A stretch of 64,000 bases of DNA from Camelus dromedarius (Eukaryota), in the NCBI RefSeq assembly GCF_036321535.1, contig NC_087436.1, forward strand, positions 24,864,001-24,928,000, written 5' to 3'. This document shows positions 6,764 through 59,062 of the stretch, one piece after another (the first letter of the stretch is position 1; every line of letters begins with the position of its first letter). The notes below the pieces were generated by a model. It was not told the DNA's origin and did no database searches. It saw nothing but the letters and a program-made list of their open reading frames with translations. The translations under genes were made by a program, and so were the position numbers.

Positions 6764-7032
6764 TTTTTTTTTTTGCCCATTTTGAAGTCTTTCACTATTT
6801 TTTCCAATACATCACACATGAATTTTGTCTGGTTTTGAACATTGTGTAAAGAGACTCACACGTAAAATTCTGGCTCCTTTCGCTCAGTCTTGTGTTTATT
6901 ACATTTGTTTGTTTCATTGAGTGCAGTTTTTGTAAATTCATTTGCATTGTGTGAATATGCCACAATTTATTTATTAACTCTATTGTTCATGGACACTTAG
7001 ATTGTGTCTTGTTTTGAGCTGAGAAACTAAAC

Positions 7033-7256
7033 CTGGAGTTGGTAAACATTTTTCTGTAAAGAGATAGATAATAAATATGTTTGGCTTTGTAGGCCTTTCA
7101 GTTTTAGTTTCAAGCTGTCAATTCTGCTGTTGTTGTAGGAAAGCAGTCATGTCAATACATAAATAAACAGATGGGGCTGTGTTTCAGTACATCTTTATTT
7201 ACAAAAACAGATAGAGGGCTGAATTAGGCAAACAGGCTGTAGTTGGCTGACCGCTA
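7033..7256. mobile_element. MER58A-like hAT-Charlie MITE
   Basis: 'gttggtaaacatttttctgtaaagagatagataataaatatg...ctttatttacaaaaacag...ggctgtagttggctgacc'. Confidence 0.8.
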
Positions 7257-20260: not shown

Positions 20261-23174
20261 GAGTGACTGGGTTTCTGGATTTTCATCAGAAGGTTGTTGC
20301 AGGAATCTGGATTAGCTAGCCATGAGGACCCGGCCCCAGTGGATGATAAATGAGTGGGAAGGGATTAAATCAAAACACATGCTGTTACTTACATTTCCAG
20401 CCCATATCAGTCTGAATTTTCTATTTAAGCATAATAAATGGCCAGTGATACTAGTTTGCAACTGCTGTGATTTGGGGAATCTCAGGCCTGCTCACAGTAC
20501 CCCCCCACCCCCGTTTTTTCTTCCGGGAGTTGGGTCTGCTTGGTGGAACATCTCCCCAGCTTTTTTGCTCCAGGTTTCTGATCAGACAGACCCACCAAGG
20601 ACTCTGTCGATTCCCACCTGAAGCTCCAGTCCACTCTGACTGTCTGGAACAAAGGCTTCACTCTTCTGGCCCTGCTTTTGCTTTCATCCCATCATCCCTA
20701 ATTAGATTAGAACCTTCACTTAATTCCCTACACCAAATTGACACTAAACTCTGCATTTATTAAAGTTTTACTGACAGTTCAGGAATAATGGCGGAAAACA
20801 CCATGGGAATTTACAACCAGTTATGAGACATGTGTGTTCTCCATCTCAGGCCCAATTTGGCCTTTGGAGCCATATCCCCACCCCTGACACTACCTCTTTC
20901 CCCATTTCCCCCTTCCAGGGCTTTAGGGAGCTGCTTTGGAACCTGAACCCAATTACCATGCAGCTCAGAGAGAGAAAGAGGAAGTTTTCAGACTATTTTC
21001 TGATTCAGGATGCTTGGATGTGGGAATGTCCTCTCCCTTCAGGGGGAACCACACAAGGTCTTGCAGGATAGCACGCAGCAGGTTGACATCTATGCATTCT
21101 GGCTTTGCTGCCTTTTGAAAAACCACAGCATGAGAGCTAACAATGGTCCAGCACAGCTCCTTTTTACAGCTGCTCCTCCAAAGTGAATGGAAGACAAAGC
21201 CTGCAAATTTTTCTGGCAATCTTTTCAATGTTAGGTTTCTACTTACTGTAAAAGGCAGTGAAACACCACCACCAACACAAAACAAACAAAACCCTCCAAA
21301 TTAACAAGAGATGATTTAAAATACAGTGCACTGAATCAGTCTCGCAGAACCGGAATAATACCTTCTCTGGCCCCACACTCCGCTCTCTTCTCTCCTACCC
21401 AGATAAAGCCAGCTCCTAGGCAGAGTCCTGTTTGCATCTCAAAACAATACCCTCAACTTGTCTAAAACAACTTTCTAAAACAAAACAGGTTGAAAGGGAC
21501 TTCAAAGCCTCCTTCAGGATCAATGGATCGATTCTTTACGTTTGTGTAATTAAAGGATCCATTCTGATGACTTCCCCCCAAAGAACTCGTGTTCTGCAGG
21601 TGCCTTTCTGCTACCATTGACAAGGCTTAAAAAGACCTTGAGGCTTTGAAATGATAGTTTTCCCAGGTTCTGCTCATTAAGTCTTCAAAAACCCTGATAT
21701 CCAGGCCTCAGTAATAAAATAAAGCCTTTTCCATATGGAACTTCTGGCAAGAACAGGTGGTTCCCTGATACAATAATTAAAGCGGAGAAAGATTAAGGTT
21801 CTCAAACCTGGGGAAGTGATAGAATAATGTGTGAGATTGATAGACTTGTGGTGAGAAGGGAGAATGGTTTGGGATGGTAAGATAAAAACTTGAGGTTCAG
21901 GTGTAATTGATGACCTTTTTTTGTCAACTCCAGTCCCAGGATGTGGGATTTGGGTGAAATTTTAGCTTTGATTGTTTCCAAATCCAGCAGCAGACATGAA
22001 GAGTCCTGTCATTAGAATATAACAGAATAGCCTTTTTATTTTAGGCTTTGGAGGTAAGAAATGAGTTGAATTTTTGCAGCTCAGGGGTCCCCTAAACATC
22101 GGAGTCATTGTGTAAGACTATTCATTAGAGCAGAATTCTCAGCTGAAATGGGATTTTGCAGAATTTACAGTTATCAGAGTTGCCCAGTTTAGACAAGTTA
22201 GCAGATGGTTTTAGTACAATTTTAAAAACTATATTAATAGTCTCCTTAATACAAGCTGAAGACACCTGTCAAAAATCATTATTTTATTGCCCAGCATTTC
22301 TCTAGAATTTGGTAATATGAAGCAAGGTCTCACCAATAACACTATTCCATTTTCATCATTATGCTTAATTATTTTGCTACTTTATCTGCATATATATAGA
22401 CTCTAATCCATTAAGTATAATTACAATTGTATTTTAATTACTAAAGTGTTTTATTTTGAAACTTCCTAGAGGGTTATTTCATTTTCTCAGGTAGTAAGCA
22501 AAGAGCCAATTCTTACCCTTACCAAAGTGACTTGCTTTCTCTTAACAGTTTTTTTTTTAAATTAGCAATAGTGATAATTGTTCTTGAGATTTAGATAGTA
22601 TATTGAATGTTTGATTTTCTGTTTGTCAATAAAACATTTCTTTTTCCTGTTTTTTCTTGATTCTAGACCTTTCTCTTATTTAGATGCAAACACACTTAGC
22701 TGTTAACAGTACCCTTTAATCTTTCTGCAGTGTATTCCTTGATGCCTGTCTTAATCTTTAAACAAGCTTCTCTTTAAATTTCAATACACTTGAAGTAGGT
22801 TCCTTTAGCTTATGAATGACTTATTTATTGATACCTATTTTCTTGTTGGATTAAAAAATAATTATATTGGTGTATGCTTGATCAACTTCTTAGTAAATCA
22901 CTTCAATGTTCATATCCTTCTGTCTTCAATTTAAGGTAATGAAAATTTATCAATCTACTGTAGACACACCAAAACGTAACTTTTCCTGCTGGGTCTCAAT
23001 AACCTTCATGCATCTGCTACCTAAAATGCAATGATAATTTTTTCTTGTTTCAGAAAACATTGGGAAATGATTGTTATTGTTTCCCAAGGTATCCCCAATT
23101 TTTCAATTTCATTCAAACTCATCTGAATTTGTGAGAACTTTAGCTTTTCTTTGAACTTTTTTAGAAATTAGTAA

Positions 23175-24420
23175 GAGCACTGGGAGAAAATATTTGCAAA
23201 CCATATAGCTGTAAAAGAACTTGTGTCTAGGCTATATAAAGAGCTCTCAAAACTCAACAGTAAAGAAACAAAGAATCCAATTAGAAAATGGGCAAAAGAC
23301 ATGAACAGACATTTCACCAAAGAGGACACATAAGCACACACACAAAAAGTTGTTTAACATCGTTAGCTACTAGGGAAATTCAAATTAAAATCACAGTCTG
23401 TTTGATTTGTAAATAAGTCTATTTGTGTCATTTTTTTGGATTTCACATATAAGTGATATCATATGGTATTTTTCTTTCTCTTTAAACACAACATTGTAAA
23501 TTGACTATAGTTCAGTTAAAAAAAAAAAAAGCCACAGTGAGATCTTATCACACACATATTAGAACAGCTAAAATTAACAACCTCAAATAGTAGCAAGAAT
23601 ATGGAGAAACTGGGATCAGTCGTCTATTGCTGGTGTGAATATAAATTGATACAGACACTGTACAACATAGTCTGATGATTTCTTATAAAACTGTATGTGC
23701 ACTTAGCATAAGGACCAGGAATTACACTAAGATTTTTATTTCTCTGGAGTAAATGCCAGTGTCTATGCAAAAACCTGTATGCAGACATGTACAGCAGCAT
23801 TATTTGTAATAGCCTCAAACTGGAAATGACCCAAATATTCCTCAGTGGGTGAAGGGTTAAACAGACACTGATACATCCATGCAATGGAATACTACTCAGC
23901 AATTAAAAAGGAACAAACTATTGATACATTCCGCAACTTGGATGGCTCTGAAGGGCATTTATGCTCAATGGGAGCAAAAAGCCAATCTCAAAATGTTACT
24001 GTATGATTGCATTTATATGAAATTCTTGAAAAGATATAACTATAGAGACAGAAACAGCATTGAGAAAGACTGAGTGTAAATATAAAGGAGTAGTGTGAGA
24101 GAGTTCTTTGGTGATGGAACAGGTCTGTACCTGATGGTGGTTGTGGTTACACAAATTTTACATGGGATCAAATTGCATAGAAACACACACATACATATAC
24201 AGGAAAGCATATAAACACTAATGAAAACTTAGTGTGTTTGCAGTCTAGTTAATAGTATTGTTCCAATTTAAATTTCCTGGTTTGACAATGTTGTATGTTA
24301 CATAATATGTTAGCATTAGAGAATCTGGGGGAGGGTTCAAGGAATTCTATGTACTATTTCTATATACTATTTTTATAACTTCTCATGAATTTGCAATCAT
24401 TTTAAGGTAAAATTAAAAAA
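23175..24420 (+). mobile_element. L1MB/L1MC 3' region (ORF2 end and 3'UTR)
   Basis: 'gggagaaaatatttgcaaaccatat...aaaatgggcaaaagacatgaacagacatttcaccaaagagg' through 'tatgtactattt...taaaattaaaaaa'. Confidence 0.85.
23398..23530 (+). mobile_element. Short 5'-inverted (twin-primed) L1
   Basis: Antisense L1 3'UTR 23398-23481, then sense 3' end with poly-A; TSD aaaatcacagt/aaagccacagt at a TT/AAAA site. Confidence 0.75.
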
Positions 24421-32217: not shown

Positions 32218-32349
32218 CTATAAGTGTCCAGAATGAGGTTGTTCATTGCAGTGTAGGGAGGCTTCTTCATGGAGAGAGGAAGTAGGGAAAACACGATGGA
32301 AATACACAAATTCTAAACAGCAGTCAGAATAAAAAGATTAGATTTTTTT

Positions 32350-34597
32350 TAACGTTTTTTAATTGAGTTTTAGTCATTTTACAATGTTGTGTCAATTTCC
32401 ATTGTAGTGCACAATTTTTCATTTATACATAAACATGTGTATATTCATTGTCACATTTTTTTTTTCACTGTGAGCTACCATAGGATCTTGTATATATTTC
32501 CCTGTGCTATACAGTATAATATTGTTTATCTATTCTACATATGCCTGTCAGTATCTACAAATTTCCCAGTCTGTCCCTTCCCACCCCCCACCCCCTTGGC
32601 AACCACAAGTTTGTATTCTATGTCTATGAGTCTGTTTCTGTTTTGTATTTATGTTCTTTTTCCTTTTCTTTTTTTCTTTTTTTTAGATTCTACATACGAA
32701 CGATCTCATATGGTATTTTTCTTTCTCTTTCTGGCTTACTTCACTTAGAATGACATTCTCCAGGGACATCCATGTTGCTGCAAATGGCGTTGTTGTCAGT
32801 TTTTATGGCTGAGTAGTACTGCATTATATAAATATACCACACTTTCTTTATCCAGTCATCTGTTGATGGACATTTAGGCTGCTTCCATGCTTTGGCTATT
32901 GTAAATAGTGCTGCTATGAACATTGGGGTGCAGGTGTCTTTTTGAAGTAGGGTTCCTTCTGGATATATGCCCAGGAATGGGATTACTGGGTCATATGCTA
33001 AGTCTATTCCTAGTCTTTTGAGGAATCTCCGTACTATTTTCCACAGTGACTGCACCAAACCGCATTCCCATCCGCAGTGTAGGAGGGTTCCCTTTTCTCC
33101 ACAGCCTCTCCAGCATTTGTCATTTGTGGACTTTTGAATGATGGCCATTCTGACTGGTGTGAGGTGATACCTCATCATAGTTTTGATTTGCATTTCTCTG
33201 ATAATTAGTGATATTGAGCATTTTTTCATGTGCCTATTGATCATTTGTATTTCTTCCTTGGAGAATTGCTTGTTTAGGTCTTCTGCCCATTTTTGGATTG
33301 GGTTGTTTGTTTTTTTCTTATTAAGTCGTATGAGCTGCTTATATATTCTGGAGATCAAACCTTCGTTGGTTTCATCATTTGCAAAAATTTTCTCCCATTC
33401 CGTCGGTTGTCATTTTGTTTTGCTTATGGTTTCCTTTGCTGTGCAGAAGCTTGTAAGTTTCATCAGGTCCCATTTGTTTATTCTTGCTTTTATTTCTATT
33501 GCTTGGGTAGACTGCCCTAGGAGAACATTTTTGAGATGTATGTCAGATAATGTTTTGCCTATATTTTCTTCTAGGAGGTTTATTGTATCTTGTCTTATGT
33601 GTAAGTCTTTAATCCATTTTGAGTTTATTTTTGTGTATGGTGTGAGGGAGTGTTCTAGCTTCACTGATTTACATGCTGCTGTCCAGTTTCCCTAACACCA
33701 TTTGCTGAAGAGACTGTTTTTATTCCATTGTATATTCTTGCCTCCTTCATTGAAGATTAGTTGACCAAAAGTTTGTGGGTTCATTTCTAGGTTCTCTATT
33801 CTGTTCCATTGGTCCATGTGTCTGTTTTTGTACCAATACCATGCTGTTTTGATTACTGTAACTCTATGGTATTGTCTGAGGTCTGGGAGAGTTATTCCTC
33901 CAGCCTCTTTCTTTCTCTTCAGTAATGCTTTGGCAATTCTAGGTCTTTTGTGGTTCCATATAAATTTTATTATGATTTGTTCTAGCTCTGTGAAATCTGT
34001 CCTGGGTAATTTGGTAGGGATTGCAGTAAATCTGTAGATTGCCTTGGGCAGTGTGACCATTTTAACAATATTGATTCTTCCAATCCAGAAGCATGGGATA
34101 TCTTTCCATTTTTTTAACCTTCTTTAATTTCCTTAATCAGTGTTTTATAGTTCTCCATGTATAAGTCTTTCACCTCCTTGGTTGGATTTATTCCTAGGTA
34201 TTTTATTACTCTTGGTGCTATTTTAAAGGGGATTGTTTCTTTACTTTCTTTTCCTGTTGATTCATTGTTAGTGTAAAGAAATGCAGCTGATTTTTGTACG
34301 TTAATCTTGTAACCTGCTACCTTGCTGAATTCTTTGATTAGTTCTAGTAGTTTTTGTGTGGACCTTTTAGGGTTTTCTATATATAGTATCATGTCACCTG
34401 CATATAGTGACACTTCTGCCTCTTCTTTTCCAATTTGGATCCCTTTTATTTCTCTCTCTTGCCTGATTGCTGTGACTAGGACTTCCAAGACTATGTTGAA
34501 TAGGGGTGGTGATAGTGGGCAGCCTTATCTTGTCCCAGATTTTAGTGGGAAGCTTTTGAGTTTTTCACCTTTGAGTACTATGCTGGCTGTAGGTTTG

Positions 34598-34635
<38 letters not shown>

Positions 34636-34761
34636 CTTTTATGCTGTTGAGATATGTTCCCTCTATACCCACTTTGGTGAGAGTTTTTATCATAAATAGG
34701 TGTTGAATTTTATCAAATGCTTTTTCTGCATCTTTTGAGATGATCATGTGGTTTTTGTCCT
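32350..34761 (-). mobile_element. Relatively young 5'-truncated L1 (2.4 kb, C-terminal ORF2 and 3'UTR), inactivated
   Basis: ORFs 34114-34488, 33692-34060, 33410-33664 and 32741-33358 are consecutive ORF2 pieces ([29 protein letters not shown] zinc knuckle) broken by stops/frameshifts; TSD ttagattttttt/ttagatgttctt. Confidence 0.97.
34599..34634. repeat. (TA)n microsatellite inside L1 ORF2
   Basis: Perfect TA dinucleotide run. Confidence 0.95.
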
Positions 34762-36263
34762 TTAGATGTTCTTAACATAGCATCATGTTTTTAACATTAA
34801 CCTTAGTCAAAAAGTAAATAGCCAGATGGAAATAGATACTGTTTTATAAAAATAAATGCAAAAAGAGAACAATATGCATGTTGCAAGACCACATGTAAAC
34901 AGAAAGATACACATCAAACACATTACAACTGTTGGTTTAGGGGAGAGAAAGGAATGTGAGTGGGTTATGAGAATTAAAAGGGAATGAAATAAAACAAGGC
35001 AGTGCCTTGTATGGACCAGTGCTAATAACGTGCTGTGAACTGAACTGTATGATTAAGACAACACTCTGTATTTGATGTCCAAAAAAAGTACCCTGTAGTC
35101 TGTAATTATATGATACATGATACAAATATAAAGAATGTATCTTTTAAAATATTTTTTTTACAAGCCAGAATTAAAGCATTATGCGTAACTAACCCAGGTA
35201 TGAGAAATTGGCCGTAACATGAATATTAATGAATCTTTGCCAAAATAGAGGCTTCTGTTTTAAGACTCTCTAATGTGAGAAATTTATAAAGCTATAGGCA
35301 GGGATTGGGGAGGTGGCTGAAGGAATTAGATAACCCCTGGATAGAAAAACTCATTTTAGCTTTTTATCCGCCCTCACAGCCAGCCTCAGAACAGCAGTAA
35401 TTTTCCACAGCCTGTGTAATTATCAATGTAGTCTTTCATTTTCAGTAGGCAGGCATCTTGCACCTCAACTCTTTTAAGAAAATAAATACCTTAAGTTTGA
35501 ATCTCTCCTCTGGAGCCTTGATGATACACTTGGAGGATTTCACAAAGAGAAGCTGTGTTGATCTTCCCTATGGACTCTCCGGGATTCCCCGGCAGGAGGC
35601 CTTGGCTGACAATTCTAGCTAGGTTTGGGGATAACCTAGGCTTGACAGTTGTCACTTGATGAAGCTTGGTAGGTGAGCTCCCCTGCCCTCTGTATGTCCA
35701 TCTGTTTCTGAATGCTTGGCAGGAGAATGTGGCTTTTCTGACAAAGGTCCAGTCTTCCCTACAAAGAATATATGTCCCTGAACCTTCGACTGGAAACTGG
35801 AACCAAGTCTCATTTCTAGTTGGCTCAAGCATGCATTCTCATTCTCATTAATGTAAATAATTGTTCTGATCTTACAAATGAGAGGTTTTTTTCAAACTAA
35901 TATTAAATTTCAGTGTGCCAGTAATTATTGACCTTCAATTGCTACTTTTTACATTTATTTATTTGTTTAAAGTCTAGTTGATTTACAATGGCCATTTATA
36001 AAGATGGCAATGTGACAGATTTTATTTGATTTTTAAGCAAAAACTTGACATTCAGAAATTTTTTAGAGCTAACATTAGCCAGATATTCTTGGTATTGAGA
36101 AAAAAGTTCAGGCTAAGTAATACAAATACCTACAGAAGATATGACTATACTGCTGCCATCTTGGAGCGAGGCCAACAATCCAGTTTTAGACTTTCTATCA
36201 TATAGTGAGATAGATGGTAGTATATTAGAGGTTTGAATTAACTAAGTTTGACAAATTATACAA

Positions 36264-46290: not shown

Positions 46291-47492
46291 CAGTTTCCCA
46301 TCTCCGCTGCTGTTTCCTCTCCCACATTGAGTCTCTCCTCTCTGGTGGGGCTGGAGTATCTCAGAGCATGCCACTCCTCTCTCCCACCCCAGGGAAGCTG
46401 ATTACCCTGCTCACTGTCTGATACCTGCACCAGGCTGTCCCCTGTGCAGATCCCTCCTCTCCTCACTGCCGCTCTGACCCTCCTTGTGGGAGGGGTCATC
46501 TCCTAGTGTGGAGAGACTCTCCACACCTCTCAGGCTCTCCCTCACCATCCAGCTGATGCTCACGTGAGGCTCAGCTCCCACTGCCTGAGCTCCGACACTC
46601 CATACAGGCTGCCCTGCTGGTGGGGGTACCTTTCTGGCTCTGGTCAGGCTCTGACAGCCCTCTCTGGACCCTGGGCTGCTCCTACCCTGACACGGGTGCC
46701 TACTTGTTCTGCCCCGGAGAAAACAGTACCCCGTTTCTGCTCCTTGCAGTTTAACAATGAAGAAGGTAAGCTAGGTCATACAGACTTTATTTACCAAAAA
46801 CCCAGGACCAAGGATGGAGGAGAGTGTTAAATAAAGACTGTTTTAAAAAATTAATCATAGAGTATCAAATAACCTGGAGAATTTAAAATTAAAATTATGT
46901 GTAAGTTAAATAGCCATTGCTTGATGGACATTTCATTTTATTTGAGCAATATTTCTGAGTTTATTGTAACTCTGAATAGACTGAATCTGATCTGGGATTA
47001 TAGAGAAAACATCGCCATACAGGAGCCTTGGAAATTCTTATTTGGGGCAGGAGGTATTTCATGATACCAGATTTCTTTAAGGAGAACTTAAAATTTGGAA
47101 ATGTGAACTACTTACGTTAAAAAGAACACTCTTCATCTCCCTTAAGGGCTCACTTTCAGAAAATGCCTTTAATGGTAAAAGGATGGGTTTTATTATAGGA
47201 CAGGAAGAAATGTGACTTACTGGAATGGGTAACCGTAGGAGGTATAGATCTTTTATGGGGATTTTTGAAAAGAGATAGGACTTAGGGGGATAAGCTGGAG
47301 GCCTCTGGAACTCTCTGGTATTTTGTACCACATAAGCGAACACCAGTTTGGGGCTTATAAGCAAAAAAGCTGGTTTAAACACTGGAAGCCTTGTATATGT
47401 TATCCATTAGGTTATTTGCTATATAGATAAATAATAAATTTTGATGAAGTCAATAATTAAAAACTTATAGGAGTTGTAAGTTATTTGTTTTT

Positions 47493-50400
47493 TTAATGTT
47501 TTTTTTTTAAAAATAAACTTCGTTCTTTTAGGGCAGTTTCAGATTCATAACAGAATTGAGCAAAAAATAGAGAGTTCTCACATAGCCCTTCCCACCCACA
47601 CATATATACTCCCCTAGTCTCAACATCCCTCATCAGCGTGGCATTTTTGGTACAATCGATGAAACATGGGCACACTATTATCAACCAAAGTCCATAGTTT
47701 ACGTTAGGGTTCACTCTTGATGTTGTACATTCTATGGGTTTTGACAAATGCATAATGACATGTAGCCACCACTGTAGTATCATACAGAATAATTTCATTG
47801 CCCAAAAAATCCCTTGTGCTCCATCTATTCATTCCTCTCTCCCTCTCTCTCCCCAAATCCCTGGAAACCATGATCTTTTTATTGTTTCTGTAGCTGTGCC
47901 TTTTCCAGAATGTCATTTGGTTGGAATTGTACAGTTTGTAGCCTTTTCAGACTGGCTTCTTTCATTTAGTAATATGTCTTTTAAGTTTCTTCTTTGTCTT
48001 TCATGGCTTGATAGATTTTTTTTTTTACTGCACATATATTTTTAAATTTACATATATGTACTATTCATTGTTTCTAAGAACGTTTGGAGCTTTAGCTTTT
48101 TAAACTTACATAGTTATCAAAGGAATAAAGCCAACCACAAGATAAGAATTAACTGAAAAAGATACACCATGCTGTCAACAGCAACATTATTTATAATTGC
48201 CAAGATACGGAAGCATCCTAAGTGCACATCGATAGTTGAATAGATAATGGAGATGCAGCATATGTATGTGTGTGTATGTGTGTGTGTGTGTGTGTGTATA
48301 CATATACATATATATATGTAATGGAATACAGCTCACCCATAAAAAAAGAAGGATATTTTGCCATTTGTGGCCCTTCATTCACTTTTTTTTTTTTTCACTT
48401 CAAAAACCGAATTTTATAACTGGCAGAGACATTTCCATTACATCAAAAACAACAAAATACTTAGAAATAAACTTAACCAAGGAGGTTACCTATACTCTGA
48501 AAACCGAAATGACACAGAGAAATGGAAAGATTTCTTGTGCTCTTGGATTGAAAGAATCAACACTATCAAAATGGCCACACTACCCAAAGCAATCCACAGA
48601 TCCAACACAACCCCCATTAGAATACTCGTGACATTCCTCAGAGGACTAGAACAAACAATTCCAAAATTTATAAGGAACCACAAAAGACCCCAAACAGCCA
48701 AAGCAATCTGTAGGTCTCTTTTTTTCCCTCTTCTTTTTGTTCTCTTTTCTTATGGTTTGATGACTAGAGAAGATCCTTTAACATTTGTTGTAAAGCTGGT
48801 TTGGTGGTGCTGAAATCGTTTAGCTTTTGTTTATCTATGAAGCTTTTGATTTCTCCATCAAGTCTGAACAAGAGCCTTGCTGGGTATTCTTGGTTGTAAG
48901 TGTCCCCCTTGCATCACTTTAAATTTATCTTGCCACTCCTTTCTGGCCTGTAGAATTTCTGCTGAAAAATCAGCTGATAACCTTATGAGAGTTCCCTTGT
49001 ATGTTATTCATTGCTTTTCTCTTGCTAGTTTTAATATTTTCTCATCCTTAATTGTTATCAATTTGATGACTGTGTGCCTTGGTTTGTTCCTCTTTGGGTT
49101 GATTCTGTGTGGTACTCTCTGCACTTCCAGGACTTGGGTGACTGTTTCCTTTCCCAAATAGGGGAAGTTTTCGGTTATTATCTCTCCAAAAATTTTCTCA
49201 GGTCCTTTCTCTTTCTTCTTTTTCTGGGACCCCTATAATGTGAATATTAGAGTGTTTCATGTTGTCCCAGAGCTCTCTTAAATTATCCTCATTCCTTTTT
49301 ATTCTTTTTTCTTTTTTCTGTTCTGAAGTTGTGATTTCCATTAATCTGTCTTCTGCCTCATTTAGTCTATTCTTGGTTCCTTCTAGTGTATTGTTCATTT
49401 CAGTGATTTTGTTCAACTCTGTTTGGGTGTTCTTTATATTTTTCAACTCTTTGCTAAAAACTTCACTGTGCATCTGTACTCCTCTTGAGTTCTCTGATCA
49501 TCTTGGCCATCATTACTTTGAACTCTTTCTCAGATAAATTACTTATCTCCTCATCACTTATTTCTTCTTCTGGGATTTTATCTTGTGCCTTGAACTGGGA
49601 GATATTCCTTTGCCACCTCATATTGTCTGTCTTTCTACATGTTTGTAGATTCCTTCTACAGGCTTTGGGATTATTGTTTTCTTATTTCTAGCATCTGCCC
49701 CTGGTGGATGAGGCTGGACTAGAGGCTTATGCAGGTTTCCTGGCAGGAGGAGCCGGTGCCTGCCCACTGCTGGGTGAAGCTTGCTCATGGACCTCTGGTG
49801 GGTATGGCTGTGTCTAGAGGCCTTTGTGGCTTAGGAAGTCTGCTGATGGGTGGGACTGTGTTCCCACTCAGTATGTTGTTTGGCCTGAGGCTTCCCTACA
49901 GGCTGTTGGGTGGAGCTAGGTCTTGGTGCTAATGATCCAATCAAGAAGGCAGCCTCCAGGAAAGCTCATGTAGATTAACACTCCCAGACCACCACCAGCT
50001 TTTATGTCCCCAGAGTGAGCCACAGCCATCCCCCACATCCCCAGGAGACCCTCCAAATCCAGCAGGCAGGTCTGGCCCAGGTTCCTATGAAATCACTGCC
50101 TCTGCCCTTGGAGTTGGTGCACATGAGTTTCTGTGTACGCTTCTCAAGTGAATGGAGTCTGTTTTCCCTAGTCCCATGAAGATCCCAGAGCCAAGCCCCT
50201 CGGCCTTCAAAACCAGATGTCCTGGTGTCCAATTCTTTTCCTCATGCCAGGACCTGAGCTGGGGAGCCTAAGGTGGGGCTTAGAGCTCTCACTCCTTTGG
50301 GAGGGCCCCTGCAACTTAACAAATCTTCAGCTTGTGGGTCCCCCACCGCAGGAGTATGGGGTCCAAATATATCACAAGCACGCCCCTCCTACTGTCCTGC

Positions 50401-50554
50401 TGTGGTTCCCTCTTTGTTTCCATTTGCAGAAGATCTTTCTTGCTAGGTTCCAGTCTTTTTTGATGGTTCTTTAGCACTCAGTTGTGGTTTCATTGTAGTC
50501 ACGAGGAGAGGCACACTCGTGGTCCTACCACTCTGCCATCTTGACTGTAACTAA
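47493..50554 (-). mobile_element. TSD-flanked composite L1-derived element: 5'UTR + ORF1 only + captured 3' segments (HAL1-like or serial transduction)
   Basis: TSD gtaagttatttgttttt (47476-47492) / gtaagttatttattttt (50555-50571); YY1-type CAAGATGGCAG at the 5' end; ORF1 49621-48764; antisense L1 pieces; L1MC 3' end; A-tail. Confidence 0.8.
48764..49621 (-). pseudogene. Frameshifted L1 ORF1 within the composite element
   Basis: MRWQRNISQFKAQDKIPEEE...KEFKVMM; ...LRELWDNMKHSNIHIIGVPE...; ends LQQMLKDLL* (TAG at 48766-48764). Confidence 0.88.
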
Positions 50555-50675
50555 GTAAGTTATTTATTTTTAATGTAGGATATTTTATTAGTGTGACATC
50601 ATCAAATGAATCAAAATGAATGTTTTGATTGTGAAGAATTCATGAGATGTTTGCCTTGATTCCAATTCCTGGGAC

Positions 50676-51059: not shown

Positions 51060-51090
<31 letters not shown>

Positions 51091-51524
51091 GCAGCATAAT
51101 TACGTTTTACTGAATTAGCAAAGTAGCATGACCTTCGAGCTAGTCTTTGGGAGACCAGGAGAACTGTCTCTCTACCAGGCAGCCTGCCCGCCCTGCTGAT
51201 GCAGCATCTGTGGAACTCCAGGGAGTCCACTTTGAGCGTGTTAAGAAGGAACTCTGTTAGATTAAATCCCTTCTTCCATTTACAGAAAAGGAAACACTCT
51301 GTAAAGCCAGTCTTAACCAGCAGACGGATTTGAAACATTTGGCAAGATGGGTTCTGAAATACAGGCTGAGTCTTGTGTTTTGCTTCATTGAGGCCGTAGC
51401 CAGCCAGAGGCCAGGGCCACCTGAGGCATACGAAAGGGCAAGGCTTTATGAAGTTGGGCTATTTCATATGGCTTTCTGTCTTCATTTTTTTTTTAACCTA
51501 TTACTCTTGGCATCAAAATCCAAT

Positions 51525-51733
51525 TTTTAATTAATTATAAATTATTTAATTATTTAATGTAATTATTTAATAATTACATCTACTATATAATTAGTAAAAA
51601 TGATTAATAATTATAATATATACATTTAATTATTTAAAGTATAGTCAATTTATAATGTGTTAATTTCTGGTGTACAGCATGGTGACTCATTTATACGTAT
51701 ATATATTCCTTTTCATATTCTTTTTCATTATAG
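51525..51733 (-). mobile_element. L1 3'-end remnant with AT-rich degenerate tail
   Basis: AT-only tract, then 'aagtatagtcaatttataatgtgttaatttctggtgtacagcat...tttttcattatagg'. Confidence 0.75.
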
Positions 51734-57971: not shown

Positions 57972-59062
57972 TAAGGGTCAGCAAACTATGGCCCAATGGC
58001 CAAATCCTACCATTTCCTGTTTTTTTTGCAAATCAAGTTTTATTGAACACAGTTATGCCCATTTGTTTATGTATTGTCTGTGATTGCTTTTGTGCTACAA
58101 CATCCGAGTTGAGTAGTTGAGACAGATATTTCTTTCTTTCTTTCTTAGGGGGAGGTAACCAGGTTTATTTTTACTTATTTTAATTTTTAAAATATGTATT
58201 TTTATTGAAGTGTAGTCAGTTTATGATGTTGTGTCTTTCTGGTGTACAGCACAATGCTTCAGTCATACATGAACATAATATACATTCATTTTCATATTCT
58301 TTTTCACCATAAGTTACTATAAGATACTGAATATAGTTCCCTGTGCTACATAGTATGAACTTATTGTTTATTTTATATAGTTAGTATCTGCAACTCTCGA
58401 ACTCCCAATTTATCCCTTCCCACCCCCTAGAGACTTATTTTTTTATTAAAGTATAGTTGATTTACAATGTTGTATTAATTTCTGATGTACAGCATAGTAA
58501 TTCAGTCATACATATTATATATATATCCCTTTCACATTCTTTTTCATTATAGGCTATTACAAGGTATTAAATATAGTTGCCTGTGCTATATAATAGGACC
58601 TTGTTATTTATCTATTTTGTGTATAGTAGTTAGTATTTGCAAATCTCGATTTCCCAATTTATCCCTCCACACAGGCTTTCCTGTACCAAACTGGTAACCA
58701 TAAGGTTGTTTTCCATGTCTTTGAGTCTGTTTTATAAATAAGTTCATTTGTGTCCTTCTTTTTTCTTTTTAAGATTCCATATATGAGTGACATCATTTGG
58801 TATTTTTCTTTCTCTTTCTGGCTTATTTCACTTGCATGCTGATCTTGAGGTCCATCCATGTTGCTGCAAATGGCATTATTTTATTCTTTTTAATGGCTGA
58901 GCAGTATTCCATTGTATATATTTGTATATACCACACTTTCTTTATCCAGTCATCTGTCAATGGACATTTAGGTTGCTTCCAGAGAAACAGATTTACTTAA
59001 GCAAAATGTAAATAAAATATTTGCTATCCGGCCCTTTACAGAAAAAGTCTGCCAGTTACTCT
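57972..59062. mobile_element. MER58A split by nested retro-insertions
   Basis: 'gggtcagcaaactatggccc...gagttgagtagttgagacaga' to about 58126; resumes about 58982 'aaaatatttgctatccggccctttacagaaaaagtctgcc'. Confidence 0.85.
58128..58981 (-). mobile_element. Stack of a vic-1 tail remnant and two L1 3' ends
   Basis: 'gggggaggtaaccaggtttattt' (about 58148-58170); L1 3' end about 58181-58427; second L1 3' end about 58436-58981. Confidence 0.85.

Follow-up and report, generated by a model that had tools for sequence, protein, structure and literature searches.

A mosaic ORF1-only retroposon of the dromedary camel: a likely HAL1-type family and a possible ADAR editing fossil in its antisense ORF2 segment

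A 64,000-nucleotide stretch of the dromedary genome (Camelus dromedarius, assembly GCF_036321535.1, contig NC_087436.1, positions 24,864,001 to 24,928,000; hereafter the window, at its full length) carries on its minus strand a mosaic built largely from pieces of the retrotransposon L1, in which the first open reading frame (ORF1) is kept and the second (ORF2) survives only as antisense scraps. The question raised by this locus is whether the mosaic is a single chimeric accident or a dead member of a family of retroposons. The initial annotation had left a choice between a family resembling HAL1 (half-L1) and serial 3' transduction; the former is favoured here, as ORF1 is kept without ORF2 and two junctions of the mosaic recur in a second copy, named P0121. 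A lineage-specific family of the HAL1 type is preferred over a one-off chimera, and the element is very probably a dead copy of such a multi-copy ORF1-only family. Additionally, the antisense ORF2 scrap is hypermutated in one direction, a feature that the first reading of the sequence had missed. A bolder and less certain reading is that of a camelid HAL1 family not yet catalogued, with a founder RNA that ADAR may have hyperedited along the antisense ORF2 segment while this formed a duplex with L1 RNA, so that each copy would inherit a fossil of germline A-to-I editing.

A mosaic moved as one unit

Direct repeats bracket the minus-strand unit (Table 1), and 16 of their 17 positions are identical. 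This pair, the two copies of a target-site duplication (TSD), is the sole match at two or fewer mismatches within the window, and among control 17-mers ending in TTTT a partner at one or no mismatch within 5 kb was found in 3 of 1012 cases. When a two-base difference in an A-run is tolerated, the TSD grows by five bases to 22 nt (50555-50576) and 24 nt (47476-47499), so that the nick could have been made at the canonical TTTT/AA or at ATGT/AG, a less typical site, and the tail is perhaps only about A9-10. The repeat claimed by the initial annotation is confirmed, and its TTTT/AA site is no longer the sole option for the nick. The marks of L1-type target-primed reverse transcription are all present, namely a TSD, an A-tail and an endonuclease-type site whose exact nick is ambiguous. 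Because the TSD flanks all of its parts, the whole 3.1-kb mosaic was transposed as a single unit, as had been proposed.

An alternative would have the old L1 3' end and an approximately 120-bp piece already resident, with a truncated L1 landing adjacent to them and the TSD arising by chance. Consistent with this are the A/T-rich composition of the repeat (T at 11 of 17 positions), the position of the old-L1 junction outside P0121, and the 3' end itself, where a hexamer listing contained no canonical AATAAA near the end of the old L1 piece. This account is nonetheless highly improbable, given how rare the repeat is in the window and among the controls, its possible extension to 22 nt, and its placement exactly at the L1 5' end and directly after the A-tail.

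The 5' half of the unit bears out the earlier description of an L1 5' end, a 5' untranslated region (5'UTR) of about 930 bp and a full-length, frameshifted ORF1. The 5'UTR measures 933 nt from the TSD to the ATG, with CAAGATGG starting 11 nt inside the TSD, and is depleted in CpG (observed/expected ratio 0.11). The 11 bases between the two resemble the end of the target site, and templated addition at the 5' junction is possible. The ORF1 contains the Pfam domains Tnp_22_trimer, Transposase_22 and Tnp_22_dsRBD, each scoring at or above its gathering threshold. Full-length relatives aligned to it by tblastn in four colinear pieces, which places frame changes near 49470, at 49200-49225 and near 48886, and an in-frame stop lies at 49010. 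Its coiled coil is without exactly one in-frame heptad (around 49340-49360), 107 of 120 homologues having seven more residues and 4 of 120 sharing the short form; the missing heptad could be a trait of the parent L1, of the family or of this copy. The named ORF1 matches are from porpoise and narwhal, and the sequence comparisons give only a cetartiodactyl affinity; the camelid label comes instead from the initial annotation and from repeat motifs. The inter-ORF spacer that follows is of the short type, like that of pig L1A1 (68 bp). The unit thus has the L1-derived 5'UTR (compared by eye) and full-length ORF1 of a HAL1 element, and likewise no ORF2 coding capacity, since a search of the unit against L1 ORF2 returned antisense scraps and no sense match, in agreement with the initial annotation.

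The 3' half begins with the antisense ORF2 scrap, which is 54.5% identical to the window's own L1 over 66 amino acids (48517-48714, E 1.8e-18) and 67.8% identical to it in DNA over 48441-48713. The second antisense scrap matches L1 at 48156-48267 and 48302-48371, the two parts being split by a (CA/TA) microsatellite. Both scraps and the internal A13 and A11 tracts are as first described, by similarity and sequence. The interpretation of these tracts as poly(A) relics of serial 3' transductions finds no good support: neither AATAAA nor ATTAAA lies upstream of either (A13 has TATAAA about 17 nt upstream), and the length of A13 differs in P0121. When A11 was matched to the A-run that L1 ORF2 itself has close to its end, the score was 77, against 73.7 +/- 6.0 for shuffles. 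The piece that ends the element (48010-47510) is tentatively labelled L1MC-like from the form of L1MC 3' ends. Across the junction of spacer and ORF2 scrap, the element strand is open for 87 codons (48486-48749, minus strand), and at least one antisense-L1 stop seems, by eye, to have been lost there through A>G, TAG having become TGG.

A second copy sharing the junctions

A chance plus-strand open frame at 48343-48810, which crosses two junctions of the mosaic, served as the query for further copies. Among 17 candidates, P0121, a 149-residue translation from a 1027-bp contig, stood out as a close relative (E 1.3e-62) and was the only match below 1e-30 among 1.84 billion representatives. It is identical to the window frame at 101 of 125 residues (81%) and colinear with it through the second scrap, the A-tract, the ORF2 scrap (both its core and the part with small deletions, which are the same in P0121) and the antisense spacer; by segment, 16/21, 29/37, 54/63 and 7/8 residues are identical. 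One extra residue occurs at the spacer junction, and the C-terminus of P0121 follows another frame of the window's spacer. Since P0121 shares the order of second scrap, A-tract, ORF2 scrap and spacer, the mosaic is not single-copy. The proposal of a family therefore stood insofar as two of its junctions recur, and fell short in that only two copies are in hand.

In simulations of neutral change, the distance between the window copy and P0121 corresponds to about 6-12% DNA divergence: the probability of at least 22 amino-acid differences was 0.001 at 4% and 0.005 at 5%, and that of 22 or fewer was 0.003 at 15%. The one mismatch in the 17-nt TSD is consistent with the same age. Orthologues diverge by about 3% between camelids and by 15-20% between a camelid and a pig, ruminant or whale. 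Living camelids separated 16.3-17 million years ago, according to the available text of two studies (PMC6726744, PMC12849490). Because 6-12% is too high for camelid orthologues and too low for those of pig, ruminant or whale, the sequences suggest that P0121 is most likely a paralogue. Sequence from the stretch occurs in many data sets: of the 23 sequencing runs listed, 20 (three organism labels, 12 studies) contain 0.54-0.58 of its words. Since the flanks make up only 19% of the query, this sharing appears to extend to the element itself. Such sharing might also be expected if the element were single-copy and P0121 were its orthologous insertion in a different species. The divergence leaves very little room for that account.

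Several observations weigh against the family. The second copy is known only as a 149-residue translation, with no flanks, TSD or junction on the old-L1 side. A third copy was not seen among the best 150 representatives listed, and the best 120 of 553 shorter matches were ordinary L1 fragments with at most 3 of 10 diagnostic residues. The ESM Atlas gave nothing further. Scans of metagenome and viral contigs with a junction motif returned no matches, a result that is uninformative because P0121 has its extra residue there; no confirmed L1 relative of any kind was found in these collections. A total of two copies fits a single retrocopying event, in which a broken L1 gave a read-through transcript whose copy was later spread by segmental duplication or survives in a single donor-daughter pair, with neither an amplifying family nor a role for the ORF1 protein (ORF1p); without its flanks, P0121 cannot attest an independent insertion. 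Protein collections sample decayed mammalian repeats poorly, however, so that an independent match would be likelier if the element is a repeat than if it exists at two loci only. P0121 also cannot be the unedited donor if the A>G cluster described below is editing, as it carries the same changes, and the size and layout of the element fit the pattern of a pig HAL1 family. A one-off origin is accordingly judged unlikely, and the multi-copy family remains the preferred reading.

A strand-specific A-to-G cluster

Compared with the window's own L1, the DNA of the ORF2 scrap has T>C changes at 17/45 positions against A>G at 6/79, which amounts to an excess of A>G on the RNA strand of the element. 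In four control L1 fragments, T>C stood at 9/40, 12/117, 12/116 and 5/26. The last of these is a short fragment at 6.9 kb, in which all five T>C changes have a 5' U neighbour on the antisense strand.

The protein-level comparison took as its reference the majority residue of 149 other L1 ORF2 fragments, of which the 147 covering at least 50 of the 63 columns were kept. Changes of the T>C type made up 10/22 amino-acid changes in the window copy and 11/18 in P0121, whereas the 147 other fragments had a mean of 1.9 and a maximum of 6; with only well-conserved columns considered, the counts were 9/18 and 9/14 against a maximum of 5 elsewhere. The residues struck are conserved in 79-91% of L1 fragments. 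Among the changes shared by both copies, 10/15 were of this type, compared with 0/8 of the private ones (Fisher p 0.003), and the burst is therefore older than the split of the two copies. The bias is about five-fold and limited to one antisense scrap, with no T>C-type excess in ORF1 (4/29 and 1/12) and no significant A>G excess in the second antisense scrap (7/30 vs 7/46). Combined, these results establish that the ancestor common to both copies underwent an A>G burst that was local and specific to one strand, and a clustered, strand-specific A>G excess is one mark of an ADAR hyperediting footprint. With the T>C-type changes set aside, both copies depart together from the L1 majority residue at only five of 63 columns, and three of these five differences are common among other L1s. 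The scrap is almost intact in this respect, so it was not old at capture and came from a then-young L1.

The cause of the burst is less certain. ADAR favours U or A as the 5' neighbour and avoids G. Weighing against editing, the neighbours of the changed sites have no clear preference of this kind (U 7/13, A 5/13, C 1/10, G 4/8, unpolarised), and no pairing partner was found in the element or in the 46-52 kb region, where inverted repeats are imperfect and at most 33 nt long and the fold has a z score of -1.35. Comparison by eye with pig L1A1 assigns about four to five of the 17 T>C differences in DNA to the reference sequence, and W>R, among the ten residues, does not correspond to one T>C change in the window. 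The control fragment with 5/26 also has T>C over A>G at p 0.03, and the pattern had been spotted by eye before it was tested.

These points leave a substantial, though lesser, chance that the cluster arose without ADAR, through ordinary strand bias tied to transcription, through errors of reverse transcriptase, or because the scrap was captured from an aberrant L1 that already had the changes; in the available text of one review, ADAR1 is moreover described as inhibiting L1 apparently without editing it (PMC12925331). Such processes sit poorly with a bias confined to one scrap, with the conservation of the affected residues and with the cessation of the burst after the copies split. Overall, A-to-I editing by ADAR in the RNA of the founder, made permanent through reverse transcription, is considered the probable cause, albeit with moderate confidence.

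From these observations, an origin in four steps can be proposed. A cetartiodactyl L1 with a short spacer would have lost ORF2, its spacer becoming joined to about 1.2 kb ending in the old L1 3' end. This could have happened if transcription of a full L1 ran on into a flank with an inverted L1 scrap and ORF2 was then deleted, or if reverse transcription switched templates between an L1 RNA and an RNA annealed to it that contained antisense L1; either route gives the antisense scrap a sense partner and hence a substrate for ADAR. The founder's antisense ORF2 scrap would then have paired with sense L1 RNA and been edited from A to I by ADAR, and reverse transcription would have turned the edits into fixed A>G changes. 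A master copy may subsequently have been transcribed from the L1 promoter, using its own ORF1p in cis and the ORF2 protein (ORF2p) of autonomous L1s in trans, with target-primed reverse transcription producing TSD-flanked, A-tailed copies such as the two in hand. Finally, the present copy decayed through the frameshifts, stop and CpG loss that it displays. The antisense segment may have drawn the founder RNA into L1 particles, leading to the ORF2-losing junction, or may have aided the element in finding ORF2p. Twin priming was ruled out, because the sense part comes before the antisense part, the reverse of its order, and a single internal inversion was likewise rejected, the two antisense scraps being in the wrong order for one inverted block.

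Relatives, surroundings and meaning

The closest comparison is HAL1_SSc of the pig (L1A6 in supplements 1 and 2 of PMC6501411), which has 3016 bp, a 944-bp 5'UTR, a 906-bp ORF1 and no ORF2. The present element resembles it in its size of about 3.0 kb, its 5'UTR of about 940 bp and L1A type (by eye), its full ORF1, its lack of ORF2 and its A-tail. By eye against the full consensus, however, the 3' half of HAL1_SSc consists of the first part of a long spacer, a stretch rich in A and T, and the 3' end of a pig L1, and contains neither the antisense ORF2 scrap nor matching junctions, so that identity with HAL1_SSc was rejected. Because the 3' halves differ, the dromedary element would represent a separate family that is HAL1-like in function, and the comparison points to an independent origin from a parent L1 related to that of HAL1_SSc.

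The HAL1 class of mammals was reportedly described by Smit in 1999 and by Bao and Jurka in 2010. HAL1 elements are portrayed in the available parts of later work as non-autonomous L1 derivatives with only ORF1p, several independent origins and likely movement by L1 machinery (PMC5753468, PMC5786205), with ORF2p acting in trans (PMC5753468, PMC4161310, PMC5786205). The dromedary element is likewise ORF1-only, L1-derived and apparently L1-mobilised; it differs in that its 3' half is mostly antisense L1 scraps, one of them A>G hypermutated, a feature not found described in the parts available. It also shares TSD-flanked composite structure with chimeras made by L1 3' transduction, in which read-through reaches a downstream poly(A) site (PMC4859970), and by template switching, in which two RNAs are joined (PMC13174262, which sets out the classes of mechanism), both as given in the available text. 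Such chimeras retain the L1 3' end or ORF2, and their foreign sequence lies on the 3' side of the L1 tail or on the 5' side of the L1, whereas here the L1 5' half is retained and ORF2 is lost. For the A>G cluster, the nearest parallel lies in Rous-associated virus as well as in avian leukosis virus, where ADAR left A>G clusters in inverted repeats of retroviral DNA with nearly 50% of A changed, according to the available text of the same review (PMC12925331). The changes here, at about 30-38% of A, are similarly clustered, in a segment that could form double-stranded RNA, would likewise have been fixed by reverse transcription, and differ in being a putative germline founder event inherited by a family of retroposons without long terminal repeats, with the partner strand outside the element.

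The family may already be catalogued in Dfam or Repbase. Titles and the beginnings of abstracts mentioned no camelid HAL1 and no ADAR footprint in HAL1 or L1 copies, and Bao and Jurka 2010 or the supplements of PMC8605555 could list the family. The term HAL1 does not occur in the main text of two papers on camel transposable elements. As a weak indication, a Repbase-annotated 190-kb camelid locus lists L1-1, L1-2 and L1-3_Vpa together with six HAL1 rows that bear only tree-shrew and bat names.

Table 1. Parts of the mosaic element, in 5' to 3' order of the minus strand
Feature	Position	Strand	Basis
5' TSD copy	50555..50571, possibly to 50576	-	Repeat comparison
11 nt preceding CAAGATGG; not G-rich, unlike pig L1A 5' ends	50544..50554	-	Comparison with pig L1A1 and HAL1_SSc starts
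L1 5'UTR with internal promoter, cetartiodactyl L1A-type lineage	49622..50543	-	Colinear blocks with pig L1A1/HAL1_SSc by eye
ORF1 of 858 nt with three frameshifts, an internal stop and one heptad fewer than most relatives	48764..49621	-	Pfam, tblastn
Truncated inter-ORF spacer, 54 nt, stops before any ORF2 start	48710..48763	-	Sequence; also in P0121
L1 ORF2 scrap with small deletions and clustered T>C (A>G on element RNA)	48400..48709, left edge approximate	+, antisense to element	
Internal A13 tract	48383..48395	-	Sequence; shorter in P0121, as deduced from protein
Second antisense L1 scrap (ORF2 C-terminal end)	48150..48371	+	L1 similarity
About 120 nt with no match in L1 similarity searches	48027..48149	-	
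Internal tract A11, either a relic tail or an A-run native to L1	48016..48026	-	
Old L1 3' end forming the element's 3' end	47509..48015	-	Sequence
A-rich tail, part perhaps of longer TSD	47493..47508	-	TSD extension analysis
3' TSD copy	47476..47492, possibly to 47499	-	Repeat comparison

Elsewhere in the window, a 5'-truncated L1 at 32340-34800 (minus strand) served as the reference. It comprises the 3' part of ORF2 and the 3'UTR, is open over long stretches and contains a (TA)n run near 34600-34634. Older L1 ORF2 fragments at 23170-24070 (plus) and 6930-7060 (minus) served as controls. At 58140-58990, L1 3' ends of unequal length adjoin in the same orientation, preceded by a G-rich end that we take to resemble a short interspersed nuclear element; similar L1 3' ends lie near 0.7, 3.5, 16.5, 40.4 and 51.6 kb. 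A candidate 16-nt micro-exon (46750-46765, plus strand), with a pyrimidine tract, AG and GTAAG, is located about 700 bases from the 3' end of the element, but no host gene emerged from an exon scan. Also observed were a long run of pure T that has no evident element next to it (51063-51090) and an AT-rich stretch with short palindromes (51522-51663).

A HAL1 family at this locus would add one more independent origin of an ORF1-only element, from the parent 5'UTR lineage of the pig family, and the pair would permit a test of why such elements keep ORF1. Without the editing feature, the finding would be a routine addition to a repeat library, and the possible fossil is its sole surprising part. 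If the A>G cluster is editing, it would be a dated genomic fossil of germline ADAR acting on L1 sense-antisense duplexes, and an edited RNA would still have founded a family, which bears on whether ADAR restricts L1 through editing.

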